A DNA stretch of 64,000 nucleotides from an uncultured delta proteobacterium (GTDB lineage: Bacteria > Desulfobacterota > RBG-13-43-22): assembly GCA_963743305.1 (NCBI GenBank), contig CAVUPH010000028.1, forward strand, positions 1 through 64,000, written 5' to 3'. The notes beneath the pieces were generated by a model. The model searched no databases, was not told the origin of the DNA, and saw only the letters and a list, made by a program, of their open reading frames with translations. Of this stretch, positions 46,541-64,000 are shown in pieces. The translations under genes were made by a program, and so were the position numbers. Positions within the stretch are counted from its first letter, which is position 1; each line of letters opens with the position of its first letter.

Positions 46541-46723
46541 GAGAGCGGATTACTCACTCATTGGGGGAGGGAGTCAGGGACTTGTTTTGGGCACGAGGGG
46601 GGAGGGGGGCTAACTAAAAAAAACTTGCGTCTTTGGTTTTACCTCCGAAATTCGTATTTCGAATTTTTATTTAAGCAACTTTCCAAGGGATTCTTCCGCT
46701 CACCCGGAGCCGGTCTTCGTGGC

Positions 46724-47080
46724 TCAGGTAAAAGGAGAGGACGGCGGAGGGCCGTCCAGGCTGGTCAAGGTGGTTAATCCGGGAGAGGGTTTTATCGCTT
46801 CCACCGGTTTGGGGGCCAGGGAATCCATGGCCCGCTGCTGAAGCAATTGGGTCTTCGTGGCCCCGACCGTCATGGCCAGGGCCAGGGTTTCCTGGATCTC
46901 CTCTTCGGTTGCGCCCAAATCCCTTGCGACCGCAAGGCAGTAAGCCGTTCAGGGCTCGCAGCCGGCCCCCAGCGAGGCCCCCAGGGCGATCAGGTGCTTC
47001 ATCTTGCGGTTGATGGCCCCGTCGGCATAGGCGGTCTCAAAAAATTCCCGGTATTGGTTCAATCCGTCTTCGACCCCCAT
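46724..47080 (-). CDS. AhpD/carboxymuconolactone decarboxylase-family selenoprotein (C-x-x-U); the ORF track splits it at TGA 46949-46951
   Basis: KMKHLIALGASLGAGCEP-TGA-TAYCLAVARDLGATEEEI is one continuous frame; hairpin CCTTGC-GGTC-GCAAGG after the TGA; GGAGG RBS before 47080. Confidence 0.85.
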
Positions 47081-47842
47081 GCCTTTTCCTCCTTCACTTT
47101 TGGTTGCCCTAAACAATGTCCCTTTGGTAACCGGCGAACTGTTAAACCCGGTTTCTCCGGCCGACTCAGCCCCGTTGAACCCCGCTTCCTTCATCAAAGC
47201 CAGGAAATCCTTTCCCGGTATGGCCCCGCCCTCTCAGCGGAACCAGCTTTCGATTCGTTCCGGAGGACTCTTGGTCAGCGCCCCGCTCAAAATCTGGTCG
47301 GCGATCAGTAGCCGGCCGTTCGGTTTCAAGACCCGGCAGGCCTCTTTCAACATGCGGCCCTTGGCAGGGATCAAATTGAACACCCCGTTGGAAATGACCA
47401 CGTCGAAGCTCCCGTCGGGGAAGGGCAGGTCTTCTCCGGAAAATTCCTGGAAAGCCACGTTGGTCAAGTCCGTCTGTTTCAGGTTTTCATAAGCCCGGAC
47501 GACCATCTCCGGCGACAAATCCAGACCCACCACCTTGCCTCCGGCCCCCACCATGCGGGCGGCCACCAGGCTGTCCAACCCACCGCCGCTGCCGATGTCC
47601 AGGACCGTTTCCCCCCGGTCCACCGAACCCAGAGAGAAAGGATTGCCCACACCGCAGAAAGAATCCAAGACACTTTCCGGCAGTGATTTCAGGATTTCCG
47701 GGTCATACCCCAAGGCCTCCAGACCGGCCCTTCCGGTTGGGTATTTGAACAACCCCTGGGGGCTGCCGGCCACCTTGGCGTATTTTTCCCGGATACCGGC
47801 TTCGATCTTTTGTTTATCCCCCGGGGATAATACAGTTTCCAT
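47081..47842 (-). CDS. ArsM/AS3MT-like SAM-dependent methyltransferase, selenoprotein (TGA 47234-47236 read as Sec); 3' end uncertain
   Basis: FCGVGNP, VLDIGSGGGLD, RVLKPNGR, then SWFR-TGA-EGGAIPGKDFLALMKEAGF, which matches the ArsM W-x-x-C-x-x-GA motif; hairpin CCGGGAAA-GGA-TTTCCTGG after the TGA. Confidence 0.82.
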
Positions 47843-47949
47843 CGCTCGACCTCTTGATACCTTGATATTCTAACGAAGCACCCACCTTGGTGTAGGGGTG
47901 ATTTCAGTCGTACTCACCCAAGAATAAATCCGATCGCGTCTCCTAAATC

Positions 47950-48255
47950 TCAATTTTGAGAGATCTCCTTCCAAGCCTGCTGAACGGCCTCGGTCAGATC
48001 GCCCATTTCCGGGATATGGTCAAAAGCGATCTTCTCGTTGATCACGATCGAAGGAACAGCCGGTTTGCGGCCGGACAGCCGGGTGAGTTCTTCATGCCGC
48101 AGCAGCCCTTCCCGGGCCCCCATATCCACCACTTCCCAGGTTAATACCCCGGGCTCAAATTCCGGGGCGATTTCTTCCAGGATAGCCAGGGCCAAGTCGC
48201 AGAGCAGGCAGCCCTTCTTCTTGGCGATAATCTCCACATATACTTTTCGGTCCAT
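47950..48255 (-). CDS. Small thioredoxin-fold protein (CLLC)
   Basis: KGCLLCD...AVPSIVINEKIAFD. Confidence 0.8.
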   Translation of the reverse strand: MDRKVYVEIIAKKKGCLLCDLALAILEEIAPEFEPGVLTWEVVDMGAREGLLRHEELTRLSGRKPAVPSIVINEKIAFDHIPEMGDLTEAVQQAWKEISQN

Positions 48256-48464
48256 CTCCTTACTCATCCGGTCCGGCATGACGGAGTCAACCCAGGCGCT
48301 TATTCAGCATTTACACGCGCCCAAGATACCCGGATATCTCTTGATAATTGACCCGGCCTCCTACGAATCGCTCCACTTCCGAGCCCTCCCGATGGATGGC
48401 TTTCCTTTTCCCCAGGGGCTGCCTTGAGCCTTTCTTCCTTTAACCTTTTCCTTCGAACCCTTTA

Positions 48465-48971
48465 TTAATCCAGTAATACCATACTATACCAGGCCGGCAA
48501 CAGTTTTCCCTCCTTATCAAACGCTATTTTGAAACCCAACGGCTCGATAGTTTTGCCGATATCCATCCCGTAGGCGTCCATGGACGGCCGGGCCAGGTGC
48601 GGAAAATTGCAGGGACTGGGGAAGGCACATTCTTCGCACTGGACGCAAAGGACCAGTGCCAGGGCATAACTACAGTTGTAGGAAAGCATGGCCTCTTTTT
48701 CCACGGCCAGGGCAACGTTCTGTCCTCCTTTTGGCTCTGTAGTCTGGATGACCAGGCCCCAACGATAGCGTTCGAAAGCCTCCTTGAACAGATCCTGAGG
48801 GATGCTCATATTGGGTGGACAGGTCCAGAACTTCCCCCAGCGACTGCAGCCGAACCGACATTTGAGAAAAGAGCGGGGATCGAAAACCACTTGACTGGTT
48901 TCCAAAAGCTTCGCTTTGGCTGCTCCCAGTTCAATGGCCTTCGTTTCTAAGGGTTCAAAATAGGTTCTCAT
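48465..48971 (-). CDS. DUF2284-like Cys-rich putative metal-binding protein
   Basis: KCRFGC..WTCPP, CVQCEEC, ARPSMDAYGMD. Confidence 0.8.
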   Translation of the reverse strand: MRTYFEPLETKAIELGAAKAKLLETSQVVFDPRSFLKCRFGCSRWGKFWTCPPNMSIPQDLFKEAFERYRWGLVIQTTEPKGGQNVALAVEKEAMLSYNCSYALALVLCVQCEECAFPSPCNFPHLARPSMDAYGMDIGKTIEPLGFKIAFDKEGKLLPAWYSMVLLD

Positions 48972-49073: not shown

Positions 49074-49916
49074 TTAAAGTCGATCCAGGGGCTTTTCCCC
49101 GCAGGTACAGACGATCCGCGGGCGGTCCAGCAGTCGCTGAAATACCCCTCGGAAAAGCATGGCCGCGGCCAGTCCGCCCAATAGGGGCCCCAGTATATAG
49201 ACGGTAATAAAACCGCCGCGAGGTCCCGGAATCGCAACCGACCCCCAGCCCGCCAGGTAAGCTACCAGCCGTGGGCCGAAGTCCCGGGCGGGATTCAGAC
49301 CGGCCTGGGTCAGGGGCGCCAGCAGAGAGATAATCCCCATGACGGTCAGGCCGATGAATACAGGTGCGATATCGCTGGAGGGACGGCCGACATTGCAGTC
49401 TTCGGTTAAGAAAAAGATGATGGTCACCAGGAGAAAAGTCCCGAGGGCCTCGATCAGGACGGCCATCGGCTTCGAAACGATCGTAATGGCCGCCGGGGCC
49501 GAGGGGTTGGGGAAATATTCCCCGAACAGGGAAGCGCTCCTGACCGATTCCGCGGACCCGCGAATGATCCGGTGGAAGGTTTCATACCCGATGATGGAAT
49601 CCCCGAAAATAAGCAGCAGGACCCACCCGGCAATAAAAGCCCCGAGAAACTGGGCGGCCAGATAGGCAGGCAGTTTCCTCGGCTCCATGCGTCCGGCAAT
49701 AACCATAGCTACACTGACCGCGGGATTCAGGTGGGCGCAGGAAAGGTGCCGGCTGGCGTAAATGGCCAAGGTGACCCCGATGCCCCAAATCCCGGCCACC
49801 TGGAATAAGCCGTTGTGAGCGGAGAAAAGGGTGTCCGAGGCCACCACCCCGCAGCCGAAAAACACCAGGATAAAGGTGCCCAGCAGTTCGCCGACGAAAT
49901 TGGTGGTTAAACCCAA
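49074..49916 (-). CDS. MIP family aquaglyceroporin
   Basis: HLNPAV and LNPARDFGPR (GlpF-type Asp after the second NPA); C-terminal CTC. Confidence 0.92.
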   Translation of the reverse strand: MGLTTNFVGELLGTFILVFFGCGVVASDTLFSAHNGLFQVAGIWGIGVTLAIYASRHLSCAHLNPAVSVAMVIAGRMEPRKLPAYLAAQFLGAFIAGWVLLLIFGDSIIGYETFHRIIRGSAESVRSASLFGEYFPNPSAPAAITIVSKPMAVLIEALGTFLLVTIIFFLTEDCNVGRPSSDIAPVFIGLTVMGIISLLAPLTQAGLNPARDFGPRLVAYLAGWGSVAIPGPRGGFITVYILGPLLGGLAAAMLFRGVFQRLLDRPRIVCTCGEKPLDRL

Positions 49917-49985: not shown

Positions 49986-51011
49986 TTAACCGGCCATGGG
50001 GTCCCGCTGCGACTCCTCGGTAAAGTCGGGATTGTTCGCGGCGACGGCGGCCAGTTGGGGCATCACCTCCGGAGGGCCGATAAATACCACCCGGTTGAGC
50101 AGGTTGATCCTTTCCGGAGGCAAAGCGGTTTCCTCCAAAGTCCACCGCCCCATGACCCAACTGAATAAATAGATCCTGATTCCATCTTCACTGATAAACC
50201 CCTTGGATCGGACCAGGGTCTTGGGAAAACGGCCGACCAGAGTCTTGAAGCCTTCCAAATCTCCCCCCTTCCAGGCATAAATGGCTGAGAGCAGACGGTC
50301 GGGCGGGGTGATTTCCCGGTTGGGATCGGCCAGCATCCGCTCAATGGCTGCTTCCAGTTCCCGGGAGGTCAGGTAACGCGCCCGGGTCCCTTCTCCTATC
50401 TGGGCCGCCGGATCCAAGCCTTTAAAGAAAAATTCCTGAAAAGGGAACTCGGCGAAAGTGGTTTCGAAAAATACCGGCGCCGGATGATGACGGGCGACCA
50501 AATCCTTCACCTGTTGGACCTGCGCGACGGTGGCCAGATCCACTTTGTTGATTATAAAAACCGTCGAAGAAGCAATCTGTTTCTCCACCGATGAAAATAC
50601 CTCGTATTCCTCTTCAAAATGGGCGGCGTCGATTACACAGAACTGCTCGGCCAGGTTGAAACGGTTATTGAAAAAGGGAAGGGTTAAATCCCGTTTCAGG
50701 TCCGTGGGGTTGGCCACCCCGGTGGATTCGATCAGCAGTACGTCCGGCTGAGTATCTTTGGCGATCTTTTGAAGCCCTTTGATGAAATCCGTCTTCACAC
50801 AAACACAGAAAATGGATCCTTTGCTGATTTCCAGGAGGTCAATGTCTTCATCCTGAACCAGTGTACCGTCCACATCCAGTTCGCCGAATTCATTCATCAG
50901 GATCATCAGTTTTTTATCCCGGGGAAAATCCTTAATGATCCGGTTCAGAAAGGTGGTTTTCCCGCTGCCTAAAAACCCGGTGATCAAGAATACGTTAGTT
51001 CGGTCGCCCAT
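49986..51011 (-). CDS. COG0523/CobW family G3E metallochaperone GTPase
   Basis: GFLGSGKTT, NEFG, GSIFCVC, ESTGVANP, NKVD. Confidence 0.9.
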   Translation of the reverse strand: MGDRTNVFLITGFLGSGKTTFLNRIIKDFPRDKKLMILMNEFGELDVDGTLVQDEDIDLLEISKGSIFCVCVKTDFIKGLQKIAKDTQPDVLLIESTGVANPTDLKRDLTLPFFNNRFNLAEQFCVIDAAHFEEEYEVFSSVEKQIASSTVFIINKVDLATVAQVQQVKDLVARHHPAPVFFETTFAEFPFQEFFFKGLDPAAQIGEGTRARYLTSRELEAAIERMLADPNREITPPDRLLSAIYAWKGGDLEGFKTLVGRFPKTLVRSKGFISEDGIRIYLFSWVMGRWTLEETALPPERINLLNRVVFIGPPEVMPQLAAVAANNPDFTEESQRDPMAG

Positions 51012-51050: not shown

Positions 51051-51305
51051 TTATTGAATAAACCCTTTGGCTCGCAATTTATCCAGAATCTGATCCGGGT
51101 TGAGCAGCATGCCGGTGGAAAGAACCTGGCCGTCGCAGACCAGGCCGGGAGTGGCAAAGACCCCCATTTTCATAAAGTAGTCAATATCCTTCATTTTAAC
51201 CACTTCGGCCTGGTCCCGTATTCCGGCTTTGTCCAGGGCCTTGAGGACGTTTTCATAGAGTGTTTCGCAATTTTTACACCCGGGTCCGAGAACTTCAATA
51301 CGCAT
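51051..51305 (-). CDS. MTH895-type small redox-active disulfide protein
   Basis: IEVLGPGCKNC...GVFATPGLV. Confidence 0.9.
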   Translation of the reverse strand: MRIEVLGPGCKNCETLYENVLKALDKAGIRDQAEVVKMKDIDYFMKMGVFATPGLVCDGQVLSTGMLLNPDQILDKLRAKGFIQ

Positions 51306-51321: not shown

Positions 51322-51651
51322 CTAGGGGTCTAGTAAGTTGCCAGTCAGGGGGATATTGTCATCCTCTTCCATCTGCTCTAAAGGGGTTACCGATCTCTGC
51401 TCCTTATCCATAACCAAAAGAACCTCACAGAACTTGCAGACCACCAGGTCCCCTTCCCGCCCAAATTGCTCCCAGAGTTTTCGGTAATCCTCCGGACAAG
51501 GTTCCAGATCCTCGGGTTTCTCCAGAGAGTTAATCCGATCCGATTTGCCGCAGTAGGGACAGCGGATCCCGAAGAGGGCCAAGTCCCGCTTTGGAAGCCC
51601 CAGATTCCTGATCAGGTTGCGAAAGTGTTCTATCTGTTCCCAATTCGTCAT
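51322..51651 (-). CDS. Small zinc-ribbon protein
   Basis: CPYC...CKFC; GGAG RBS before MTNWEQ. Confidence 0.7.
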   Translation of the reverse strand: MTNWEQIEHFRNLIRNLGLPKRDLALFGIRCPYCGKSDRINSLEKPEDLEPCPEDYRKLWEQFGREGDLVVCKFCEVLLVMDKEQRSVTPLEQMEEDDNIPLTGNLLDP

Positions 51652-51677
51652 GGCTCCATCCTCGCTTCGAAATTCCT

Positions 51678-52658
51678 CTAACAGCATTTGTAGAGCCGCA
51701 GCAGCCGTTCATTCATCACAAAATAGAATTTCATGAAGGAGGATCCGTCCATCCGGGTTCTAACCCCGTGCAGGGTATTGGCCAGGGCAATGGTGCTGCG
51801 AAGATGGGTAACCATGATCAAATGCTTTTTGGACGCCAATTCCTTCAGCAGGGCCTGCATGGATTTATGGTTCAGATAATCCAGGGCGGGTTCCACCTCA
51901 TCCAGCAGGTAAAAAGGGCTTTGCAGGCGCTCGAACAGGGCCAATTTCAAGGCCAAACTGGTAATGGCCTTTTCACCCCCGGAAAGTTGATGGCCCCTTC
52001 GGACCAGCCTACCCTTGACGGCTACCTCTACCTCCAGGCCCTTTCCCTTTTTCCCGTTGACGATCAGCAGGTGGCCCTCCCCCTCCGGGAATAAATAGTG
52101 GAGGTACCTTTGAAACAAAGGATCGGTTTCACTCATTAGTTCTTGGGAAAGCGAGTCCGTCGACTTCTTTCCATTAAGGCTCTGGATCCAGCGAAGGCGG
52201 TCCGCCGGCAGCAGGGCCAGGAGATCGTTGATCTGCTCCTGTCGGATGATGGTCTTGATAGTGTCGGCCAATCCCAGTGCCTTGAGTTTCTTCCGGTAGG
52301 TTGCCGGGCTGACCGTCTCATCCTGGACCTGCCAGGTTTCTTGACCATCTCGGGTCACCGTTCGGGCCAGTCGGATTTCCGAAGAATTTTTCTCCGGACT
52401 TTCTTTAAAAACCAGTTCCGCCCGAACCCGGGAGGCCGGAGGGTAGGCCTTATTGCCGGCGAAAAAAAGCTCCTCGCGCTCCAGTAAACGGAGCTTGACC
52501 AAGTCATTTTCTCCCAAGGTCCAGACAATTGCATCCAGGATATTGGACTTGCCTACCCCGTTGTTCCCGATGATCACCCCGATGCCTGGTTGGAAGCTCA
52601 TCGCCGTGGGTTCGGAAAAGGACTTGAAGCCTTCAATGGTTACGTCTTCCAGATGCAT
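51678..52658 (-). CDS. SMC-family head-only ABC ATPase (no long coiled coil or hinge)
   Basis: GFKSF, GNNGVGKSNI, IIRQ, LSGGEK, LLDEVEPALD, VTH within 326 aa; ends in KCC. Confidence 0.85.
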   Translation of the reverse strand: MHLEDVTIEGFKSFSEPTAMSFQPGIGVIIGNNGVGKSNILDAIVWTLGENDLVKLRLLEREELFFAGNKAYPPASRVRAELVFKESPEKNSSEIRLARTVTRDGQETWQVQDETVSPATYRKKLKALGLADTIKTIIRQEQINDLLALLPADRLRWIQSLNGKKSTDSLSQELMSETDPLFQRYLHYLFPEGEGHLLIVNGKKGKGLEVEVAVKGRLVRRGHQLSGGEKAITSLALKLALFERLQSPFYLLDEVEPALDYLNHKSMQALLKELASKKHLIMVTHLRSTIALANTLHGVRTRMDGSSFMKFYFVMNERLLRLYKCC

Positions 52659-52679: not shown

Positions 52680-52955
52680 TTATTCTTTCAGTCCAAATTC
52701 CCTCAGAGCCTTCCAGAGCGTTTCCCTGCTGGGGCTGATTCCCTCGATTCGTATCAGGCTTTCAATCACTATGGCCGGGACCACCTTCAAACCCAGTTCC
52801 GCCATCCGTTCCTTTCCGTCGCCCCCCTTATGCAGAACGCAGTGCACCCGTTCTCCTAACGAACCCTTCAACTCAGCGCACAACTGCTCCAACTCTTGAC
52901 AGCCCGGGCAAGGCGGTTCTCCTATAAAAGCCTCCAATTGAACCGGTGGGGACAT
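52680..52955 (-). CDS. Small thioredoxin-fold protein (CPGC)
   Basis: EPPCPGC...VVPAIVI. Confidence 0.8.
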   Translation of the reverse strand: MSPPVQLEAFIGEPPCPGCQELEQLCAELKGSLGERVHCVLHKGGDGKERMAELGLKVVPAIVIESLIRIEGISPSRETLWKALREFGLKE

Positions 52956-52960: not shown

Positions 52961-53380
52961 TTACCCTTCCCCGGCGGCTTCCCGCAGCCAAGTTCGAAGC
53001 AATTCGGACTCGGGCACGCTGCCATGGTGCTTCAGCTCTCCGTTGACGATCAGGACCGGAGTCATCCACATGTTCAGATGGTCGGCCTTTTCCTGACAGG
53101 GGAGCAGGGCCTGGTCCAGGTCCGGCGACCAGTCCTGTTTCAACAGACCCGCCACCCGGCTCCAGTCCACCTCCACAGTGCCCTCTTGGGCCACGTCTTT
53201 GGCCGTCCCCAGCCCCCGCTGCCATTGACGGGCCAAAGCCTGGGCTTCCGACGACCGGCAGTCCATTTTCCGGACCTTCACTTCGATACCGGCCCCCTCC
53301 GCTTCCTGGTTAACCCGCTGGACCAGGAGGCTGCAGCGGATACAGGGCGGTTCTGTCCCGATAACGATGACCTCAACCAT
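52961..53380 (-). CDS. Thioredoxin-fold protein (CIRC)
   Basis: GTEPPCIRC...MTPVLIVNGELKHHGSVP. Confidence 0.82.
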   Translation of the reverse strand: MVEVIVIGTEPPCIRCSLLVQRVNQEAEGAGIEVKVRKMDCRSSEAQALARQWQRGLGTAKDVAQEGTVEVDWSRVAGLLKQDWSPDLDQALLPCQEKADHLNMWMTPVLIVNGELKHHGSVPESELLRTWLREAAGEG

Positions 53381-53663
53381 TTTTCAATCCCCAGCGGCGT
53401 CGAATTTCCTCGGCTAGTTCTTCCTGCCCGGGAATTAAGGATTCATAAACCAACTGTTCGTCCAGAGCGATGCTGGGCAGGGATTTGGCCTTTAATTCCC
53501 GAAACCGGTTCACTCCTTCCCGGGTGCGCATATCCCACTCCCGGACCTTCATGAGGTCCTGAATTTCCTGCGGTAAAACCTTTACCGCCTCGGCCATATA
53601 GACGCAGGCCAGTCACTGGCGGAAATCGGTTAAGAGGACGTCAACAAGAACTTTTTTTTCCAT
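53373..53663 (-). CDS. Thioredoxin-fold selenoprotein (U-x-x-C), Sec at TGA 53613-53615
   Basis: GGAG RBS, MEKKVLVDVLLTDFRQ-TGA-LACVYMAEAV...LPSIALD; hairpin GCGGTAAA-GGT-TTTACCGC downstream. Confidence 0.85.
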
Positions 53664-54618
53664 GATCTCCTTTCCCGGGCCAGGGAAACGACTGGACCTC
53701 AAAGTGAAGGTGGGCCTCCGCAACGGTCAACAAACCCCAGTTCAGCCGGCCGTCTTCATAAGCCGACCCAACGCTGATAAAATCCACTCCACCCACCTGC
53801 CAGTAACCCCATTTCTTTCGTTGGCCGAAAATCACGATCCCGCTCCTGAACTGAGGGGTCATGGCCTCCAGCGCTGGAAAGACCGATTCGTCCTCCATGA
53901 ATTGAGTCAGATTGCCCACCAGGTTTATCTCCAAGGCAAAGGGCTCGTAGTCGGAATAGCCGGGGAGGCCCTGAATGAATCCCCCGTAAAAAGCCATGCC
54001 CTTTTTCGTCCCCAGTTGAATAGAGAGGACCTGGGCCATGGATTCCAGATAGTCTCGATCTTTGGGGCTAAGCGTTCCCCCCGGGCTGGCCCCCAATTTC
54101 CGGGCGTATCGCCAATCCTCCTCTCCCTGGATGGTCATCACTTTTTTATCTTTTCGCAGGGCCTTTAACAGCGGGCCATTCTCCACCGAAGGCCCCGTTT
54201 GGTTTCCCAGGCAATAGACCGCTTCCACTTTCTTTTTTTTGAGTTCGGCCCTCAGGGTTTCCCAGATTTCGAGCCGACCGGCCAAATTTCCCACCAGGGC
54301 CACCCGTTTTCTTTCCCACAGGTCGGCCGCTAGACGAAACGATTGGGCCGGGAGCAGGGTCCCATCCAAGGCTGCCCCCAGGGCCCGATCCAATTGATCG
54401 GGGCAGGAGGTCTGGTTCTGGCAGTGAATATCCTTCAGCCAGGGTCGGATCTCCGCGACCGCTCGATCTTTGATTAATCGGCTGACCAACTGGGCATTGC
54501 CAGGACAGCCTCCGCCGCGGAAATCCACTTCGGTCAGAATCCCTTCTTTGATTTGGAAATGTATTTCCGGAGGACAAATACCCTGGGTCCGGAAAATATA
54601 CCTGCCGGCTTCAATCAT
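53641..54618 (-). CDS. TSCPD-domain (TIGR03905-like) protein fused to a degenerate metallophosphoesterase-like domain
   Basis: GICP, GGGCPGN, TSCPDQL; C-terminal VALVGNLAG / VYCLGN / IQGEED. Confidence 0.75.
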   Translation of the reverse strand: MIEAGRYIFRTQGICPPEIHFQIKEGILTEVDFRGGGCPGNAQLVSRLIKDRAVAEIRPWLKDIHCQNQTSCPDQLDRALGAALDGTLLPAQSFRLAADLWERKRVALVGNLAGRLEIWETLRAELKKKKVEAVYCLGNQTGPSVENGPLLKALRKDKKVMTIQGEEDWRYARKLGASPGGTLSPKDRDYLESMAQVLSIQLGTKKGMAFYGGFIQGLPGYSDYEPFALEINLVGNLTQFMEDESVFPALEAMTPQFRSGIVIFGQRKKWGYWQVGGVDFISVGSAYEDGRLNWGLLTVAEAHLHFEVQSFPWPGKGDHGKKSSC

Positions 54619-55202: not shown

Positions 55203-55262
55203 TTCATCTCCATAATTAATAATTAACAATTAATTATTAATTATTAACGATCAGTTAGGTTC

Positions 55263-55729: not shown

Positions 55730-56182
55730 CTATGTTCCGCAAATATTGGCCTGTCGTTCCTCCAACGCCCTCAAGTAGGTTTGGGCGTCCATGAATTTCC
55801 GCTGTGGGTCGAAACCCTCTTCCGCTTCCAGGGCAAAGAGGACGTAGTGATAAGGGTTTTCATCAATGACCTTGACCCCTTCCCCGTCCAGTTCCTGATT
55901 CAAATAAACCACCTTTCCGGATACCGGGCTGTACAACTCAAAGGACACTTTATACGTGTCCACGGCCAACAGCGGTTTCCGCTCCGGAATTAAATCACCC
56001 TCCGCCGTGATAAATTCAAGGTAGGTAAAACCGCTGATCATGGCCACCCCCGCCTCAGTAAAACCGAAGGCCCAAGTGTTGGAGCCAGACCAGATTTTGA
56101 CCCACAGTTCCTGCTCTTTATAATAAAGGAGCTCCTCCGGAAGAGAAATCGTATGACCGTAAAAACCTTCAAGTTGGAGCAT
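55730..56182 (-). CDS. Glycine cleavage H-like (lipoyl carrier) protein
   Basis: LWVK..FGFTEAG, AVDTYKVSFELYSPVSGKV..NPY; lipoyl Lys retained. Confidence 0.8.
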   Translation of the reverse strand: MLQLEGFYGHTISLPEELLYYKEQELWVKIWSGSNTWAFGFTEAGVAMISGFTYLEFITAEGDLIPERKPLLAVDTYKVSFELYSPVSGKVVYLNQELDGEGVKVIDENPYHYVLFALEAEEGFDPQRKFMDAQTYLRALEERQANICGT

Positions 56183-56222
56183 CCCGGGACCCAATCATAT
56201 GCCTTTAACTACCGATCTTGGC

Positions 56223-56798
56223 TCAATCGTTTTCGCTCAGCGCCCTACGCTCAGCGTCTTCCATCCCCGGCAACGACGGCATGGATTCCGGCCGATGAAC
56301 ACGCGGATTCACTTCATCATAAGCCAGGGCTTCCTCGATATCCAGGGAGTATTCACAGCAGTGAAGATTTTCTCTTTTCACCTTCTGGGTCTTGAAGGTG
56401 TAGGGGCCTTTCAGAATCCCACAGGCCACCTCGACGGCTTCTTCCGCCATGACTTCCGACAATCGACGGCCTTCTTTCTCCAACTGGGCCCGGCACATCC
56501 CCGGTTTCAGCTTGGTCTTGGCGATATAGGCGGGTGTATAAAGACGGGCCGCGGGTTTGATCCCCAACATATTCAGAAAATAAGAGCCACATTGCTGCTT
56601 GCAGCCATCCAGGACAATGACCGGATATTTTTCCAGCAAGGCGATTTCATCAGGAGCGCCCCGCTGGCAGCGGTGCATGTCCAGGAGTTCCAGTTGACCG
56701 GGCAGCATCTCTTCCGTCGCCTTCAAGGAGGCCTGGCGGGTCACAGTCGACACCACCAGGCCGACGCCGCCGCAGGGATAGAGCAATACCTTTTTCAT
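56223..56798 (-). CDS. DGC-domain putative zinc-binding protein
   Basis: YPCGG, VLDGCKQQCG. Confidence 0.75.
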   Translation of the reverse strand: MKKVLLYPCGGVGLVVSTVTRQASLKATEEMLPGQLELLDMHRCQRGAPDEIALLEKYPVIVLDGCKQQCGSYFLNMLGIKPAARLYTPAYIAKTKLKPGMCRAQLEKEGRRLSEVMAEEAVEVACGILKGPYTFKTQKVKRENLHCCEYSLDIEEALAYDEVNPRVHRPESMPSLPGMEDAERRALSEND

Positions 56799-56997: not shown

Positions 56998-57570
56998 CTA
57001 TCCCCCCGACCTTGATTTCGCGGCTTCCATCGGCAGGGGTGGCATGTTTTTCGGGCGGTAAAGACCCGGTTTGATCCGAATATACCCCAGGTCCCTGGCC
57101 GGGTTCCCCTTCCAGTCCCCGATCCGGCCTTCAAAGGGAACGTTTACTTTTTGCGGAGTAAAACGATAGTCGGGGTCGCTCAGCAACCCCCCGGCCACCT
57201 CGGCCATCGTTTCGGCTACCCGTTCGACCAGGTCCAGGCCCTGGCCTTCCAGGTCCGGACGTCCCGCCTGCGGTTGCAGCCCCCAACTTTCCATCAGTTC
57301 CGGCAACAGGATACGGGCCGCCGGCCGGAGACCGATCTGTTTCATCAGAAAGGAACCACAGCTTTCCTCATGGCAGTCGATCACCAGCGTTGGATTTTTT
57401 TCCACCATAACCAGATCTTCCGGAACCCCCCGGTAATAGGCGGGTACGCAGAGGAGCAGCGTCTTTTTCGGAAGCAGTTCCTCATTAACCCGATAGGTGG
57501 CCCAGCGGACCACGGTGGCTTCAGCCTTTTTTATTCCCCCGCAGGGAAAAAGGACAACGCGACCGACCAT
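56998..57570 (-). CDS. DGC-domain-like protein, paralogue of 56223..56798
   Basis: FPCGG, VIDCHEESCG, shared PAAR and RPxxMP motifs. Confidence 0.72.
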   Translation of the reverse strand: MVGRVVLFPCGGIKKAEATVVRWATYRVNEELLPKKTLLLCVPAYYRGVPEDLVMVEKNPTLVIDCHEESCGSFLMKQIGLRPAARILLPELMESWGLQPQAGRPDLEGQGLDLVERVAETMAEVAGGLLSDPDYRFTPQKVNVPFEGRIGDWKGNPARDLGYIRIKPGLYRPKNMPPLPMEAAKSRSGG

Positions 57571-57619: not shown

Positions 57620-58573
57620 CTAACCCCGGCAGGCCTTTAGACAGTCCAAAATCTCTTCTTCATTAATCTTCCACCCCACGAAGGCCAGCGTGGTCGGCCC
57701 CTTGGTGTCCAGGGCCAGCCATTCGGTCTTTTTACCGACATGATTGATAAAAAACCGGTGACCGTCCAGCAACACATATCCCTTGATCCGGTACAGCCCG
57801 GCCGGCACGGACTTGATGAAATCCTTGAAGCAACTTTCGCGCAAAGGTTTTTCTTCCTCGAAAGCGAAGGCCACGTACCCCAGTTCTTCCGCGTTTCCTG
57901 GTTGATCCCGCTTGAACGGGGTGGTCAGTGATATTTCCCCTTTTCTGATCATGGTGGGCAGCGGTTGCCAGAAGATCTGGGGTTCAATCATACAATGCTC
58001 AGTGGGGACAACGGTGCAATAGGGGTTGAATTCCTTGACTTCCACCAAATAGCGGGAGATGTTTTCCCGGGGCAGGAGATCAACCTTATTAAAAAGCAGC
58101 AGGTCGGCGCCTTTGATCTGGTTATAGAACAAGGGGCCGAAATATTCCCGGCCCTCCCACAGATCACCGTCCAGGACCGTCACCACCTTGGGAATTTTGA
58201 CGCGCGGCTCGATAACCGGCCCGCGCAGGAAGAGCAAGATCTCCAACGGATCAGCCACCCCGGTGGCCTCGATAAACAGGTGGAGAGGATTGAACTTCAA
58301 CAGGATCTCTTCCACCGTTTTAACCATATCGCCGGCCATGGTGCAACAGATACAGCCGTTGGTCAATTCATACACCGGGGTTTGGAAGCCTTGCAACAAC
58401 TCTCCGTCAATCCCCACCCGCCCGAACTCATTGACCAGAACGGCCGTCCGAGAAAGGTTTCCGGGCCACTGCAAAATACGACGGAGCAGGGTGGTCTTTC
58501 CGGCCCCTAAAAATCCGGCGAGGAGGATAAGGTCGCACAAGGATTCAGGAGGAGCTTCTTGGGGGGATTTCAT
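57620..58573 (-). CDS. COG0523/CobW family G3E GTPase
   Basis: GFLGAGKTT, NEFG, NGCICC, EATGVADP, NKVD, YRIKG. Confidence 0.92.
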   Translation of the reverse strand: MKSPQEAPPESLCDLILLAGFLGAGKTTLLRRILQWPGNLSRTAVLVNEFGRVGIDGELLQGFQTPVYELTNGCICCTMAGDMVKTVEEILLKFNPLHLFIEATGVADPLEILLFLRGPVIEPRVKIPKVVTVLDGDLWEGREYFGPLFYNQIKGADLLLFNKVDLLPRENISRYLVEVKEFNPYCTVVPTEHCMIEPQIFWQPLPTMIRKGEISLTTPFKRDQPGNAEELGYVAFAFEEEKPLRESCFKDFIKSVPAGLYRIKGYVLLDGHRFFINHVGKKTEWLALDTKGPTTLAFVGWKINEEEILDCLKACRG

Positions 58574-58976: not shown

Positions 58977-59321
58977 TTATTTTTCAAACTTTATTTCAGC
59001 GTCCTTGGGCAACGCCATACCCATGGCCACTTCGGCCGTTTTTAATAACGCTATCGGCACCGGACACATGGGATGGCAGCCGGACTGCTGCGCTGCCTGG
59101 AATACGGGGCTCCGGCTGATCGGGGCAAAGAGGTCTCTCAGACTGATTTCCCTGATCTGTTCGAAGAAACGCTGGATGTGCTTGCACTCGGAGCCCTGAC
59201 CCCGAAGTTCGACCAGGTATTTATCTTTTCTTTCCCCGACAATGACGCAGGGAAAACCGCAGATTCCCGGATTGACCTTCACCCGGGTGAGGGGTTGTTC
59301 ATCGGATTCTGTTTCTTCCAT
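58977..59321 (-). CDS. Small Cys-rich protein (DUF6951-like)
   Basis: VNPGICGF, SECKHI, CHPMCPVP. Confidence 0.7.
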   Translation of the reverse strand: MEETESDEQPLTRVKVNPGICGFPCVIVGERKDKYLVELRGQGSECKHIQRFFEQIREISLRDLFAPISRSPVFQAAQQSGCHPMCPVPIALLKTAEVAMGMALPKDAEIKFEK

Positions 59322-59442: not shown

Positions 59443-61503
59443 TTACTTCTGGTGCAGCACTTCCGCCGGCACGATCCCTTCCAGATGCGGGAAGGCGTCC
59501 TTCATATGCGGAATTTGCATGGATTCCATGAACTGGACCTGGAAATCCTTTTCCACGGTCAGTTCGATGTATTCTACGTTGCGGGAGACCCAGTTGGCTT
59601 CCACCCGTTTCTCCCGGTTCAACAGGGCCGCCCGGGCGCCGTCACCGGCCGCGTTGCCCACCGAAAGGATCTTTTCGATAGGGCAGTCCGGGAAGAGACC
59701 CATGATCAGGGCCTTGGTCCGGTCCACGTGGGTCCCGAAGGCCCCGGCGATCTTGACCACATCCACTTTGTCGATGTTCATTTTCCGCATCATCAGCTTA
59801 CAGCCCGTGTACAGGGCCCCTTTGGCCAACTGGATCTGACGAACGTCCTTCTGGGTGACGACCACGTCCTTCTCGATGCTGGTCTCATTGGCCCAGGCGA
59901 TAACGAATTCCGGCTGTTTGGTGTCGGCGTTCAGACGGTACCGATTGGATTTCTGCGTCTTGTTGAACACCCCACTCTTCACAATGACCCCCGAGGTATA
60001 CAGTTCGGCCAGCACATCCAGAATCCCCGATCCACAGATTCCCTTGGTCTTCATCTCTTCGGGCTTGGAAAAGCTCAACCAGGCATCGCGGCCGATGACC
60101 TTGTAATCCACCGCGTGGGTCTCCGGATCGATCTTGATCCGTTCGATGGCCCCGGGGGCGGCCCGCATGCCGAAGGCCAATTGGGCACCTTCCAGGGCCG
60201 GGCCGGTGGCGCAGGAGGAGGAGATGAGTTTTTCCTTGTTCCCCAAGACCAGCTCGCCGTTGGTCCCGATGTCGATGAGCAATTGGACTTCATCGCTCTT
60301 ATAAGGCGCCTCGGCGATGAGCACGCCCACGTTGTCCGCCCCCACAAAACCGGCCTCATTGGGCAGGACATGGACATAGGCCGAATCATTGATCTTGATC
60401 TTCAGGTCCCGGGCCTTGATATCCAGGCTCCGGTGGATGACCGGAGGAAAAGGGGCCAGGCCCACAAATTCCGGGTCCAGCTTAAGTAGGATGTGATGCA
60501 TGGCCGTGTTGCAGACGATGGTCATGTCCACGATATCCTTCGGTTCCAGGCGCAGGTAGGTCTTGCCTTCCTCGGGCACCTCTTCCCAGGTCTCAACAAC
60601 CTGATCGCCTTCTTTGACCTTCTTTTTCTTTTTGGGTGGATAAGTGGACTCCACGGCCTGCTTGACCAGGGTGTTCAGGCCCTCGATCATGTCGTTGCTC
60701 ATCCGCTCCAGGCCGTCTTCGTTCATCATATGGTAGGTAATCCGGCTCATCACGTCTTCCCCGTATTTGCATTGGGGATTCATCATGGAAACCGTTTCGA
60801 TGACCTCCATGGTCTTCAGGTTACAGAAATAGGCGGCCACGGTGGTGGTGCCGATATCCACGGCCAGCCCGTAATTGGCCCCCTCTCTTTTGCCGGGCAG
60901 AACCCGGATAATTTCTTTGTCCATCCAGATCGAGACGGTCATGGCCCAACGTCGTTTATCCCGCAAACGGGCCGGCATTTTCATCAGGGCCCAGTAGTCA
61001 ATGGTCAGATCCTTGATGCCGAACTGACGGTTCAACTCATCCTGAAGCCGCTCGAAATCCCCGGTGGGGTGCTCAAAGGTGGGCTCAATGACTTCCACGT
61101 AATATTCCTTAACCGCCGGGTTCCAGTCGATGGGAATATCCCGGGCGGCCTTGCTGACGATCTGCTTTCCGGCCCGCGATTCCTCGGGTACAAAAATCAA
61201 CAGGTCCCCTTCGATCTTGGCACAACACCCCAACCGGTATCCCAGTTCGCGCTGTTCCTCGTTGACGAACTTCTCCTCTTCTTCCATCCAGGGGCTGACG
61301 TTGTTGCGGCTGGACTGGATTCCGTATTTTTCATAAAAGCCTTCCTCAATCCGCACCTTGCATTTGCCGCAAACTTTTTTCTCTCCGCAAAGGGCTTCGA
61401 TATCCACGCCTACCCGGCGGGAGGCTTCAATGATGGTCATCCCTTTGGCCACTTCGCCTCGCCGGCCGGAAGGCTGAAAAATGATCTTCGCATTTTCACT
61501 CAT
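59443..61503 (-). CDS. ASKHA-domain [2Fe-2S] reductive activator of corrinoid proteins (RACo/RamA-like)
   Basis: CGEKKVCGKC...RLGC, AVDIGTTT, NPQ..YGEDVMSRI, IDIGTNGE, CATGPALEG, GICGSG, AGAFG. Confidence 0.93.
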   Translation of the reverse strand: MSENAKIIFQPSGRRGEVAKGMTIIEASRRVGVDIEALCGEKKVCGKCKVRIEEGFYEKYGIQSSRNNVSPWMEEEEKFVNEEQRELGYRLGCCAKIEGDLLIFVPEESRAGKQIVSKAARDIPIDWNPAVKEYYVEVIEPTFEHPTGDFERLQDELNRQFGIKDLTIDYWALMKMPARLRDKRRWAMTVSIWMDKEIIRVLPGKREGANYGLAVDIGTTTVAAYFCNLKTMEVIETVSMMNPQCKYGEDVMSRITYHMMNEDGLERMSNDMIEGLNTLVKQAVESTYPPKKKKKVKEGDQVVETWEEVPEEGKTYLRLEPKDIVDMTIVCNTAMHHILLKLDPEFVGLAPFPPVIHRSLDIKARDLKIKINDSAYVHVLPNEAGFVGADNVGVLIAEAPYKSDEVQLLIDIGTNGELVLGNKEKLISSSCATGPALEGAQLAFGMRAAPGAIERIKIDPETHAVDYKVIGRDAWLSFSKPEEMKTKGICGSGILDVLAELYTSGVIVKSGVFNKTQKSNRYRLNADTKQPEFVIAWANETSIEKDVVVTQKDVRQIQLAKGALYTGCKLMMRKMNIDKVDVVKIAGAFGTHVDRTKALIMGLFPDCPIEKILSVGNAAGDGARAALLNREKRVEANWVSRNVEYIELTVEKDFQVQFMESMQIPHMKDAFPHLEGIVPAEVLHQK

Positions 61504-61675
61504 GCCGCTGACTCCTTTTTATTGACAGTATTTGCATAACGTTGTTTGGGTTCGGCCGGTTCGGGACGCACACCTGACCATCGGAATGGGGGGTGATAAA
61601 ATTGTAGCTGATTGCCGGCCAACGATCCCCCCGAGGTGCCGGGGGGATCGTTCCAGCCGCACCCAACAAACGGGG

Positions 61676-62344
61676 CTATTGTTTTTTCTGCATTTCCCGC
61701 AAACGGGCGATCATCTTGATCCCCTCGGCCACGGCATTCCCGGCTGATTCCGCGTAGCCGTCGGCGCCGAAGAGGTTGGCCACGTCTTTGGTCACCGGAG
61801 CGCCGCCGAGCATGATGGCCACATTGGGGTTTTTATCCTTGATCATCTTGATGACCTTTTTCATGCCCAACATCGTAGTGGTCATCATGGCCGACATGGC
61901 TACGACTTCCGAGTCGGTCCGCATCTGCTCTTCCACGAACTTTTCGAGCGGCACGTCGCGGCCCAGATCATGGACATCCCAACCGGCCACGTCAAACATC
62001 ATTTTGACCAGGTTTTTGCCGATGTCATGCACATCACCCTGGATGCTGCCGATGACTACCTGGGCGTTCACACCGCCTTCTTTCTTGGGCACGTGGGGGC
62101 GCAGGATAGCCAACCCGGCATACAGGGCATCGGCGCACATCAGGACCTCCGGCACGAAATACTCGTTCCGCTCGTACAACTGCCCGACGACTTCCATTCC
62201 GGCGGCCAGACCGTCCATGATCATTTCCAGTGGGGTATAACCGGCATCAAGGGACTCCTGGGCGGCTTCCTTTACCTGGTCCTCTTTATAGTTGATGACC
62301 CCGTCCTTCAAGAGTTCCAATATTTCTTCTTTCGATTTAGCCAT
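61676..62344 (-). CDS. Methyltransferase cognate corrinoid protein (MtaC/MttC-like)
   Basis: Cap domain GLAAGMEVVG..YFVPE, DVHDIGKN, SAMMTTT, GGAP. Confidence 0.93.
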   Translation of the reverse strand: MAKSKEEILELLKDGVINYKEDQVKEAAQESLDAGYTPLEMIMDGLAAGMEVVGQLYERNEYFVPEVLMCADALYAGLAILRPHVPKKEGGVNAQVVIGSIQGDVHDIGKNLVKMMFDVAGWDVHDLGRDVPLEKFVEEQMRTDSEVVAMSAMMTTTMLGMKKVIKMIKDKNPNVAIMLGGAPVTKDVANLFGADGYAESAGNAVAEGIKMIARLREMQKKQ

Positions 62345-62406
62345 AACACGTTCCTCCTAAAAAATATTTTTTGTCCTAAAGGGATAGGCTTTGATTTGTC
62401 AAATCT

Positions 62407-63531
62407 CTAAATCAATGATTTTTCAGGGCCAACCTTGGGTCGGCTCGATCCGCCATCTATTCTTCCCACGGCCGGCGTGGGACCCGTCTTGTAGGTCCGG
62501 GCGGTCTGTTCGATAGCCCGCATGTTTTCTTCCTTGATGTCCGGCCAGAGATCGCAGCCCGGCCAGACGGCGTCCACCAGACCGTCGATATTGGTTTTGA
62601 TCCCTGCAATCGCCATCTCCACCGTAGTCTCCTCGGCGCAAGGCAGCTTAAAGACGTCAAAGTTGCCGACAATCAGGGCTTCGTTGCCCAGCTTTTTCCG
62701 GGACTCCAGAAGATTGTTTTTGATATCCACGCTGACTGCCTGGGCCCCGGAGTCCTTGACGATCTCCCACATCATCTCGATCAACGGATCGGTCGATCCG
62801 CAGATATGCAGCACCTTGGGCGCGTTCCAGGCCTTTAGAATCCGAGTCAACCGGGGTTTGATCATTTCCCGGAAGGTCTTGGGGCTCAACAGGTCGGCGG
62901 CTACCCCGGGTTCCCTCAGGGTGATGTAATCCGCCCCGGCGGCCAGCAGGGCCTTCCCGTTGTTGGCGATCATCTCGGTAAACTGGTCGAGGATAGCTTC
63001 TACTTTGGCCTTTTCTTTGAAGACCCCCTTAAGGACCTTATCCAGTTCGATGGTCTGGCCGCATTGGGTAAAGGGGCCCAACTGCCAGGCGCCGAGGGCC
63101 AGTTCCGGGGCCTCTTTTTTCACGATCTTTATGGCTTCGGGGATGAGATTCATGGGGTAGCGATCCATAAGGTGATCGATATCGTTCCGGGTAATCTTGA
63201 CGTCATCCATCGTCACCCACTTTTTGGTGGGGATCGTGGGATAAAGGGTATCCTCGGAATCCGCATACAGGCTGATCTCGTTCCCCAAGGCTTCTGATTC
63301 CCAGCACATATCATAGGGAATAACGACGGAATCCAATTTGAACATGCGGGCCGACTCGATGCCCGACCAGGCCAACTTCTCGGCATCGCGATGAACGGAC
63401 GGAAATTTTATTCCCAGTTTCTTGATGGCCGGGCGAAGCACCATGCCCATGCCGGTGAAGAAAGGCATCACATCCACCGGTTCTCTTTTAAAAAACTTCA
63501 TGACACGATCATAAGGGGTTAGTTGCGCCAT
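62407..63531 (-). CDS. MtaA/CmuA-like methyltransferase (URO-D superfamily)
   Basis: ESEALG, GPFT, Zn ligands LHICG and PGCD. Confidence 0.85.
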   Translation of the reverse strand: MAQLTPYDRVMKFFKREPVDVMPFFTGMGMVLRPAIKKLGIKFPSVHRDAEKLAWSGIESARMFKLDSVVIPYDMCWESEALGNEISLYADSEDTLYPTIPTKKWVTMDDVKITRNDIDHLMDRYPMNLIPEAIKIVKKEAPELALGAWQLGPFTQCGQTIELDKVLKGVFKEKAKVEAILDQFTEMIANNGKALLAAGADYITLREPGVAADLLSPKTFREMIKPRLTRILKAWNAPKVLHICGSTDPLIEMMWEIVKDSGAQAVSVDIKNNLLESRKKLGNEALIVGNFDVFKLPCAEETTVEMAIAGIKTNIDGLVDAVWPGCDLWPDIKEENMRAIEQTARTYKTGPTPAVGRIDGGSSRPKVGPEKSLI

Positions 63532-63565
63532 TCGTATCTTCTCCTTTCCAAAAGCTTAAGTTAAT

Positions 63566-64000
63566 TTAGACGCTCAGAGTCACCACCCGGTAGCAGCGCA
63601 GGCAGCGTTCCGCCTCGGCAACCGCCGCTGCGGGGGAATAACCCTGTTCCACTTCCATGAAATTCCGGTTCCGTTCCTCCGGGAGCAGCTTCGTCAGCGG
63701 GATCCGCTCCTGTTTTTCGGGTACTCGGACCTCCTCCTGCGGATCATAGACCCGAATGGTCTTAAAAAGGCTGTCAAAAAGATCATCCTGATCCGGCTCC
63801 AACGGCAGACCATTGATCAGGCGGTCAATACTCTCTGCGGCCTTTTTTCCGTTGGCCGCCGCCTCGATAACCGATCGGGGTCCGTTGACCGCGTCCCCCC
63901 CGGCAAAGATGTTCGGATCATCGGTCTGCAGGGTATACGGGTTTACCTTGACCGTTCCCCAGTCGGAGAGGGTGCATTGGCAATCGGGCCCCAGGCAGGC
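63566..64000 (-). CDS. C-terminal part of a GltD-like FAD/Fe-S oxidoreductase, truncated by the window edge
   Basis: Open frame from 64000: TLQTDDPNIFAGGDAVNGPRSVIEAAANGKKAA...EAERCLRC. Confidence 0.85.
   Translation of the reverse strand, partial: ACLGPDCQCTLSDWGTVKVNPYTLQTDDPNIFAGGDAVNGPRSVIEAAANGKKAAESIDRLINGLPLEPDQDDLFDSLFKTIRVYDPQEEVRVPEKQERIPLTKLLPEERNRNFMEVEQGYSPAAAVAEAERCLRCYRVVTLSV

Follow-up and report, generated by a model that had tools for sequence, protein, structure and literature searches.

What does a long run of genes on one strand do when it couples corrinoid-dependent methyl transfer to a series of small proteins rich in cysteine and selenocysteine (Sec)? The question is raised by contig CAVUPH010000028.1 (assembly GCA_963743305.1) of an uncultured delta proteobacterium of the Desulfobacterota (lineage RBG-13-43-22). 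The window, the stretch of 64,000 nucleotides (nt) analysed here, is positions 1-64000 of this 86,642-base contig; genes upstream of it are given in contig positions. From 46724 to 64000 the window holds 23 complete minus-strand genes and one cut by the window end, and every plausible gene lies on the minus strand. A preliminary description, made from the window alone, had counted about 22 co-oriented genes, and scans of the cluster proteins with Pfam and NCBIfam confirm the families that it named. It placed the cluster within 46667-64000, which is right for the gene content listed but leaves out the 5' end: the whole supercluster covers about 26 kilobases (kb; contig ~46.7-73.2 kb), the window part being the 3' two-thirds, with ~8.5 kb further outside.

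The reading that we prefer, and hold with about as much belief as doubt, is that these genes specify a corrinoid-dependent system for methyl transfer between a methylated substrate (methyl-X) and tetrahydrofolate (THF), together with a thiol/selenol and metallochaperone module for loading or repair of the cofactors. Gene content, signals of Sec recoding, synteny and co-occurrence across genomes are shown by the sequences; all biochemical roles are inferred. The two parts are taken in turn.

A proposed corrinoid methyl-transfer core

The genes of the core, the last four of them upstream of the window, are as follows.

63566..64000 (gene continues to contig 65527), minus strand: 3' part of a NuoF-FeS/GltD-like NAD(P)H oxidoreductase, 653 amino acids (aa) (Pfam/NCBIfam)
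62407..63531, minus strand: UD1, an MtaA/CmuA-like methyltransferase of the uroporphyrinogen decarboxylase (URO-D) fold, 374 aa (Pfam, NCBIfam)
61676..62344, minus strand: corrinoid protein, B12-binding_2 plus B12-binding domains (Pfam, GDVHDIG)
59443..61503, minus strand: RACo-type reductive activase, 2Fe-2S ferredoxin domain plus ASKHA ATPase (Pfam)
contig 65602-66591, minus strand, outside the window: MtrH-like protein
contig 66670-67089, minus strand, outside the window: thioredoxin (Trx)-like protein with CxxC, HUIPC-like
contig 67182-68117, minus strand, outside the window: UD2, URO-D-like, 311 aa
contig 72621-73160, minus strand, outside the window: CobO

Corrinoid proteins are defined by the motif DxHxxG, and the corrinoid protein of the cluster, which matches PF02310 at 95.3 bits and PF02607 at 78.6 bits, has it in its translation as GDVHDIG. 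The activase matches the Pfam families RACo_C_ter (311.2 bits), Raco_middle (160.9 bits) and Fer2 (36.9 bits). The MtrH-like protein matches PF02007 MtrH at 133.9 bits, and its closest structure in the PDB is 6sj8, a methylcorrinoid:THF methyltransferase (E 1e-35). For UD1 the closest PDB structure is that of MtaA, 4ay7; H242, C244 and C326 of UD1 are invariant in 20/20 aligned sequences and are presumably the zinc ligands, the identity of the H-x-C...C residues being taken from MtaA. UD2, in its 311-aa form, has F at the His position and is without the distal Cys of the zinc site. From these homologies the region would encode a three-component corrinoid-dependent methyl-X:THF methyltransferase system.

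The only candidates for the methyltransferase on the substrate side are the MtaA/CmuA-family proteins. As UD1 is partnered with a THF-side enzyme, it must act on the side of the substrate, if this reading of the core is correct. Characterised members of the MtaA/CmuA family transfer methyl groups to or from thiols, thioethers or halides, so that by analogy a methyl-sulfur or methyl-selenium compound is a plausible substrate. The preliminary description saw no methyltransferase of the MttB or MtaB type; none was found in or near the window by the scans, while two relevant genes, for the MtrH/MtgA-like enzyme and the second URO-D-like protein, lay just beyond what it could see.

Two further observations concern these proteins. 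Across related loci the corrinoid protein has a median identity of 88%, the MtrH-like protein 68%, UD1 58% and the TSCPD fusion described below ~50%. Two other genomes, one of them that of a congener (G003), the other G007, have a second UD1-like copy, of 69% identity, directly upstream of UD1.

An accessory trio with conserved partners

Downstream of the core come genes for which the name of a family says less. Three of them, for a fusion protein with a TSCPD domain, for the small Trx-fold selenoprotein t14 and for an ATPase made of an SMC head, form a trio that is the most constant part of the cluster. With them belong the following.

58977..59321, minus strand: DUF6951, Cys-rich, 114 aa (Pfam)
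57620..58573, minus strand: COG0523 GTPase a, CxCC motif (GCICC) (Pfam, NCBIfam)
55263..55592, minus strand: HUIPC-like Trx-fold protein, Cys form (CLPC)
54906..55229, minus strand: HUIPC-motif Trx-like selenoprotein (UIPC) (NF047660, 143.1 bits, above the cut-off of 105)
53641..54618, minus strand: TIGR03905-type TSCPD domain with four invariant Cys, fused to a metallophosphoesterase-fold domain
53373..53663, minus strand: t14, Trx-fold selenoprotein, F[NR]Q-U-x-A-C-V-Y-M, ULAC
51678..52658, minus strand: SMC-head-only ABC-type ATPase, 326 aa, SMC_N (Pfam, NCBIfam)
49986..51011, minus strand: COG0523 GTPase b, FCVC replacing CxCC (Pfam, NCBIfam)
48465..48971, minus strand: DUF2284 Cys-rich protein (Pfam, NCBIfam)
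47950..48279, minus strand: HUIPC-like Trx-fold protein, Cys form (CLLC) (Pfam, NCBIfam)

The structure of the TSCPD fusion was predicted with a mean pLDDT (the predictor's own confidence score) of 82.8. Its C-terminal 240 residues adopt the fold of calcineurin-like metallophosphoesterases (1nnw, SapH, Vps29; Foldseek E ~1e-9, best 1.2e-9), and the fold search favours those like YfcE and Vps29 over those like Mre11; no Pfam metallophosphoesterase family is matched by the protein. Metallophosphoesterases bind their metals through the motifs GDxHG, GDxxDRG and GNHE. Here these are replaced, by GNLAG and GNQTG in the window protein and by LIGxLxG and CLGNLTG in the family consensus, so the catalytic residues look lost. 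A search of a protein collection found 574 relatives of the fusion, mostly from Desulfobacterota. A search of the ESM Atlas returned only the query protein's own family, in Thermodesulfobacteriota.

The ATPase is an SMC head with neither coiled coil nor hinge, as is clear from its end-to-end match to the engineered head construct 1e69 (E 4.7e-57) and from a score of 198.8 bits, below the cut-off of 567.35 for full SMC proteins (TIGR02168). A predicted complex of this ATPase with the TSCPD fusion scored 0.01 against a mark of 0.32, a result that weighs neither way on their binding; that they might pair like Mre11/Rad50 is no more than an idea. The C-terminus of the ATPase reads Lys-Cys-Cys in 20/20 aligned orthologues, a vicinal dithiol at the very end of the chain.

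The window has eight Trx-fold genes, four HUIPC-like and four of the Thioredoxin_3 type, one more than the seven in the preliminary description. Only the product of 54906-55229 belongs to the curated family NF047660; its paralogues score 73.1, 59.7, 47.7 (t14) and 31.5 bits and are non-members. No other model is matched by t14. The predicted structure of t14 is a thioredoxin fold (pLDDT 91; template modelling (TM) score 0.67 to Bacillus subtilis TrxA) that places Sec where helix 1 begins. Most of the top-ranked public entries for t14 are truncated to 74 aa, beginning after the TGA codon, and are unnamed or called ‘hypothetical protein’.

Related loci were collected by a profile scan with an alignment of TSCPD fusions, taking one genome per species, and most of the genomes concerned are metagenome bins. 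The single TSCPD protein as query found no loci in genome contigs where the alignment profile did. The scan gave 77 loci, 46 of them at least 15 kb long, and partners were counted by tblastn in these 46. The flanks end at 10 kb, so the counts for distal genes are lower bounds. TSCPD and t14 occur in all 46 loci, the SMC-head gene in 45 and COG0523 in 41. The histidine kinase follows (28), then V4R (27), MtrH (27), UD1 (26) and the response regulator (24), and after these cobO (18), the corrinoid protein (17), the NuoF-like protein (13) and RACo (11). DUF6951 follows RACo in 8/46, and a 121-aa CPYC...CKFC protein is also found in 8/46. At least one corrinoid-methyltransferase gene is present in 36 of the 46 loci and at least two in 21. 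Trio and methyltransferase genes are combined in at least two different gene orders, which argues for selection rather than for common ancestry of one arrangement. The conjunction of corrinoid protein, RACo and MtaA/CmuA-type zinc methyltransferase in a single Sec/Cys-rich cluster, as first described, is conserved.

The same association appears when whole genomes are compared. UD1 orthologues (at least 87% identity) are found in 5 of 21 genomes of the order. Four of the five have TSCPD too; in the remaining one, G007, the trio is represented only by the SMC-head gene, at a contig edge. The TSCPD query had no match in the other 16 genomes, on 3 of which the SMC-head query was also run. The genome search at class level drew on the same 21 genomes. 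In the congener G003 the set is complete and its order unchanged, apart from a 7.7-kb insertion, at 43189-50928 of its contig C53 (L011 ~15400-21000), between the genes for an MIP-family channel and DUF2284; it contains COG0523-like and response-regulator-like matches.

Four selenocysteine codons

At least four in-frame TGA codons had been seen at cysteine positions, and four are confirmed in the window cluster by TGA conservation and by two curated models.

55160-55158, minus strand: Sec codon of UIPC, HUIPC-motif protein
53615-53613, minus strand: Sec codon of ULAC, t14
47236-47234, minus strand: Sec codon of UEGG, ArsM domain of the ORF at 46724-47842
46951-46949, minus strand: Sec codon of CEPU, AhpD domain of the same open reading frame (ORF)

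The case is most complete for t14. Among the 77 related loci, 73 cover the codon and all 73 have TGA. Conservation extends to the 16 residues ahead of it; synonymous sites hardly vary over the 66 bases that begin with the TGA, and a conserved hairpin with a GG-containing loop lies at +29 to +45 after the TGA. One pair of this hairpin changes from AU to GC, a compensatory change, in 5 of 28 aligned sequences (70 were available). In orthologues of the HUIPC-motif protein the UIPC codon is TGA in 13 and Cys in 6, and the ArsM-AhpD ORF passes its family model, NF041537, across both TGAs. The genome carries tRNA-Sec, SelB and SelD; SelA was not found in this assembly, which is 90% complete. Conservation of the codon, a hairpin with compensation, orthologues with TGA or Cys and the presence of Sec machinery together put recoding of TGA beyond chance, and from their sequences the t14 and HUIPC-motif genes can be classed as bacterial selenoprotein genes. 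An Rfam scan of 44000-64000 gave two sub-threshold chance matches and no family of Sec insertion elements (SECIS).

The tail of the ArsM-AhpD ORF has further in-frame TGAs at 46726-46724 and 46702-46700 (PFT-U-ATKTGSG-U-AEE), followed by TAA at ~46667. Both are kept in the congener G003 and are candidate Sec codons only; the available text of a review (PMC13188914) lists the ArsM/AhpD family with three Sec. The selD match is in two pieces (G000:C26:75850-76774, minus strand), the first of which holds an in-frame TGA, as would suit a SelD that itself contains Sec. A frameshift, or an artefact of searching in six frames, may account for the split.

What the module might do

In the mechanism that we propose, UD1, perhaps with its truncated paralogue UD2, would move a methyl group between a small substrate and the Co(I) corrinoid protein, and the MtrH/MtgA-like enzyme would hand it to or from THF. 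RACo and the NuoF/GltD-like NAD(P)H oxidoreductase would bring oxidised Co(II) back to Co(I), and the V4R protein, PAS kinase and LuxR regulator would control expression. The accessory module would consist of the TSCPD fusion, t14, the SMC-head ATPase, one or two COG0523 proteins, the HUIPC-type proteins, DUF6951 and DUF2284, with the TSCPD fusion as a catalytically degenerate metallophosphoesterase scaffold. It would use thiol/selenol chemistry, powered by nucleotide hydrolysis, to load, process or repair the cofactors of the methyltransferases, namely cobamide and/or zinc-thiolate sites.

The genes that recur around the trio suggest this role. To count them, all other ORFs of 76 loci were clustered and representatives scanned. 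An FNR-like reductase was found in 24 loci, DUF1638 in 22, a CxxCxxCC protein in 22, cobO in 18 and a TrxR-like protein in 10; CbiM was found in 5, CobD in 5 and a BtuF-like binding protein in 4. It is the presence of CobO, DUF1638, cobalt/cobamide uptake genes, flavin reductases and G3E GTPases among the neighbours that points to cofactors. An activase like RamA that serves B12-dependent methionine synthesis is co-fit with DUF1638 (PMC5764234, available text).

A narrower form of the proposal is a speculation that we consider somewhat unlikely. The trio and COG0523 could form a selenium-requiring selenol machine that processes imported cobamides, for example by stripping the upper ligand, and delivers them to the corrinoid protein, as a bacterial counterpart of the CblC/CblD/MMAA route.

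Several results weigh against the reading of a methyltransferase system served by a cofactor module. UD1, the MtrH-like protein and the corrinoid protein all fall below the curated NCBIfam cut-offs of named equivalogs: the MtrH-like protein scores 157 bits against 550 for the MtgA equivalog, and with TIGR01463 UD1 scores 159.4 and UD2 128.8, both under the cut-off of 235.4. A substrate methyltransferase of MtaB, MttB or MtvB type is absent from the 24 window genes and the 10 upstream ORFs scanned. Intergenic gaps are at most 199 nt within 46724-58573, where several genes overlap, and the single gap of 403 nt next to this stretch (58574-58976) sets the block of RACo and DUF6951 apart from the rest. 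Ten of the 46 loci are without a corrinoid-methyltransferase gene within 10 kb, each of the cobamide genes is in a minority of loci (at most 24/76), and we infer a cofactor-handling role for the trio from neighbourhood alone. Finally, DUF2284, a conserved member of the cluster, also occurs fused to ArsM-like selenoproteins (NF041536), and in one related locus, L031, a DUF2284-like ORF again comes next after an ArsM-like gene. With these fusions, this pair and an aquaporin gene reported at a similar locus in Desulfofundulus (PMC10907483, available text), a link of the cluster to ArsM-type chemistry may exist.

Alternative explanations

The genes that suggest such chemistry, and three extra Thioredoxin_3 genes, are at the 3' end of the cluster or scattered within it.

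56998..57570, minus strand: DGC-like protein a (Pfam 24.6 bits, below the cut-off of 27)
56223..56798, minus strand: DGC protein b (Pfam 41.3 bits)
54620..54934, minus strand: Thioredoxin_3 protein (PPCSRC) (Pfam)
52961..53380, minus strand: Thioredoxin_3 protein (PPCIRC) (Pfam)
52680..52955, minus strand: Thioredoxin_3-like protein (PPCPGC), start uncertain (Pfam)
51051..51305, minus strand: MTH895/ArsE-family Trx-like protein, Thioredoxin_3 type (TIGR00412, 74.6 bits, above the cut-off of 62)
49074..49916, minus strand: MIP-family channel, NPAVS / NPARD (Pfam)
46724..47842, minus strand: ArsM-like S-adenosylmethionine (SAM) methyltransferase fused to an AhpD/CMD domain (NF041537)

The preliminary description took the cluster to handle a metalloid: a neutral metalloid or methylated chalcogen would enter through the MIP channel and be reduced or bound by a Sec/Cys relay, and its methyl group would be exchanged with cobalamin, with the ArsM-like enzyme as SAM-dependent partner. 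Much in the window agrees with this. The ArsM/AhpD selenoprotein truly belongs to NF041537, whose cut-off of 510 bits it passes with 598.9 over residues 1-341 and with UxxG and CxxU motifs in frame, the channel has the NPARD motif that is typical of aquaglyceroporins, an MTH895/ArsE-family thioredoxin is present, UD1 retains the zinc-thiolate site of MtaA-type enzymes and the model of t14 resembles the metallochaperone ArsD (TM 0.5). The recurrence of ArsM-like and DUF2284 genes as fusions and in L031 and the Desulfofundulus aquaporin speak on the same side. Against it, the generic ArsM model (NF008823) gives only 180.3 bits, below its cut-off of 263, and no protein of the ArsR, ArsB/Acr3, ArsC or ArsA families was found among the cluster proteins scanned with Pfam and NCBIfam.

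The related loci keep the rest of the cluster while an ArsM-like gene is found in one of the 46 (L031), the channel in two and DGC in one (the congener's), and the extra neighbours that do recur are cobamide and cobalt genes. The gene for the PPCSRC protein occurs in 2/46 loci and those for the PPCIRC and PPCPGC proteins in 1/46 each, the congener's locus only; the DGC genes likewise are confined to this genus among the loci fetched, the other locus being the congener's. Among the loci fetched, the ArsM-AhpD selenoprotein, the aquaglyceroporin, two DGC genes and three Thioredoxin_3 genes are thus additions peculiar to this genus. It is this restriction that weakens the metalloid reading, which we regard as unlikely; we do not think that the accessory module handles a metalloid. 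The comparison of neighbourhoods that the preliminary description had proposed thus divides its cluster, the core being syntenic and the arsenic-type genes not. Its AhpD-like protein exists as the C-terminal domain of the ArsM-like ORF and not as a gene apart, and both its DGC proteins were matched, one of them under the Pfam cut-off. Its proposal of a possible link to C1 metabolism through the adjacent cooS is likewise unsupported, since cooS is beside none of the 46 loci and the MtrH/MtgA-like enzyme points to THF.

In our view it is quite improbable that a methyltransferase operon, a redox/selenoprotein island and an ars-like module, each independent of the others, lie side by side here without joint function. 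Gaps of 403, 373, 340 and 336 nt leave room for separate promoters; scans for promoters and terminators, whose counts exceeded those in shuffled sequence by ~1.7 standard deviations at most, were set aside. The 10 loci in which the trio stands without methyltransferase genes, and the several genus-limited genes, also fit a chance assembly. It is opposed by the 36 loci in which the trio adjoins corrinoid-methyltransferase genes, in several gene orders, and by the all-or-none co-occurrence in the 21 genomes of the order.

Very improbable is a third proposal, that the HUIPC-like Trx-fold (seleno)proteins are methyl acceptors or carriers, protein-borne stand-ins for coenzyme M that are (de)methylated by the MtaA-like enzymes: the motif [C/U]xxC-x-Y-M common to five paralogues, the constant place of the Trx-like gene at 66670-67089 next after truncated UD2 wherever UD2 is present, the missing His and distal Cys in UD2 and the methylation of thiols by MtaA-family enzymes would suit it, but t14 accompanies the TSCPD and SMC-head genes, not a methyltransferase, in 46/46 loci, UxxC on a Trx fold is what is usually seen in redox proteins, and we know of no precedent for Trx-fold proteins as methyl acceptors of MtaA-like enzymes.

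Relation to known systems

We rate the methyl-transfer core as a known kind of system and the selenium-dependent accessory module, as it appears from its genes, as unprecedented. Like the core, MtgABC of Desulfitobacterium hafniense (MtgA, 6sj8) and Mto of Methermicoccus (PMC8630106, available text) encode a corrinoid protein together with a methylcorrinoid:pterin methyltransferase of the MtrH family and an activase of the RACo/RamA type. They differ in their substrate methyltransferases, MttB-type in Mtg and MtvB-related in Mto, where only MtaA/CmuA-family proteins are seen here, and neither, as described in that text, has a large Sec/Cys accessory module. From the same source, MtoB is MtvB-related and not MtaA-like. 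A reading of the cluster as an O-demethylase for methoxy-aromatics, with V4R as aromatic sensor, is unsupported on this account and because the V4R match is weak. UD1 shares the URO-D fold and the H-x-C...C site of MtaA, MtbA, MtsA and CmuA (TIGR01463; 4ay7), yet its scores are under all the curated cut-offs, and it is paired with a THF-side enzyme.

The closest approach to the whole cluster is an ‘incomplete methyltransferase operon’ noted in Desulfofundulus kuznetsovii TPOSR, D. thermosubterraneus and D. australicus, for which the authors, in the text available, propose no function (PMC10907483). Its insert, to go by annotation names, has an aquaporin, a TSCPD protein, an AAA ATPase, a GTP-binding protein, a binding protein and short ORFs, and lies between B12-binding, MtrH-type and MtaA/CmuA genes. 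Desulfofundulus belongs to the Bacillota, unlike the present host, and the likeness is one of annotation names. The selenoprotein families NF041537 (ArsM/AhpD) and NF047660 (HUIPC Trx-like) are credited to Haft and Tolstoy 2025 in the available text of the review PMC13188914; the ORFs at 46724-47842 and 54906-55229 pass these models and t14 stands outside them. Two selenoprotein families curated by NCBI and a similar insert noticed in Desulfofundulus (PMC10907483) were thus already known. No paper characterising the cluster or the trio was found by literature search, to which Haft and Tolstoy 2025 and Haft and Gwadz 2023, which may describe neighbourhoods, were beyond reach; within the searchable literature the preliminary description was therefore right to know of no characterised operon of such composition.

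The SAO/Tso operons (PMC13188914, available text) also group several selenoprotein genes, including ones for Trx-like UxxC proteins, and the C-terminal Cys-Cys of the SMC-head ATPase recalls the SaoC motif. Their gene content is different, and 0/30 scanned proteins match Sao/Tso models (E <=0.01, in one set E <=0.001).

Two other likenesses are functional or partial. Trafficking and repair of B12 employ the thiol chemistry of CblC/CblD, the G-protein chaperones MeaB/MMAA, an adenosyltransferase and methionine synthase reductase. A similar set, a COG0523 G3E GTPase, CobO, an FNR-like flavoprotein and thiol/selenol proteins, stands here beside a B12 enzyme; the analogy to CblC/CblD is of function only. 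In class II ribonucleotide reductase a C-terminal TSCPD tail is reduced by thioredoxin. The cluster also has a TSCPD domain, with its four invariant Cys, whose gene directly adjoins that of a Trx-fold protein, but the domain is fused to an inactive-looking metallophosphoesterase fold, is paired with an SMC-head ATPase and is without a reductase domain.

Corrinoid methyltransferases carry much of the methyl turnover of anoxic sediments, acting on methanol, methylamines, methyl sulfides and methoxy-aromatics. A conserved set of more than 20 genes is now defined. Dozens of Desulfobacterota species have it and so, to go by annotation names, does Desulfofundulus; in this set a core without a known substrate enzyme is tied to an unexplained trio whose selenoprotein is TGA-encoded in every locus examined. 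Solving its function would name either a new methylotrophic route in sulfate reducers or a new form of maintenance for B12/zinc enzymes, and it would explain the need for selenium and correct the annotation of t14.

Other genes of the region

The remaining genes of the supercluster are these.

55730..56194, minus strand: GcvH-related protein (Pfam; NF045810, 70.8 bits, below the cut-off of 150)
51322..51687, minus strand: 121-aa protein, CPYC...CKFC, Zn-ribbon-like, no family match
contig 68458-69120, minus strand, outside the window: LuxR response regulator
contig 69104-71596, minus strand, outside the window: PAS histidine kinase
contig 71970-72494, minus strand, outside the window: V4R protein

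The V4R protein (71970-72494) is rich in Cys and His, and its sole NCBIfam match, weak at 23 bits, is to the V4R domain of MsvR. This regulator is a redox sensor of methanogens, and the match gives a hint of redox sensing rather than substrate sensing. PDB sequence searches with DUF2284 and DUF6951 gave no match.

Beyond the 3' end of the cluster, cooS (44410-46387, minus strand) is split near 45185 into two frames, with ORFs of 421 aa and 338 aa. It is intact as a 665-aa ORF in the congener G003, and the present copy has one extra base ~1203 nt into the gene. Either the assembly is wrong at this point or the frameshift is real.

Some loci have neighbours of their own. In L013, L026, L036 and L040, genes for a rhodanese, a DsbD_TM-thioredoxin fusion and a GcvH-related protein recur beside the trio, upstream of the TSCPD gene. 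This group may be the rhodanese/DsbD-type ‘Tso’ selenoprotein neighbourhood named in the available text of PMC13188914. In five loci, among them L038, L039 and L055, the conserved block contains a gene for a protein with an FGE-sulfatase domain, placed between those for the SMC head and COG0523.

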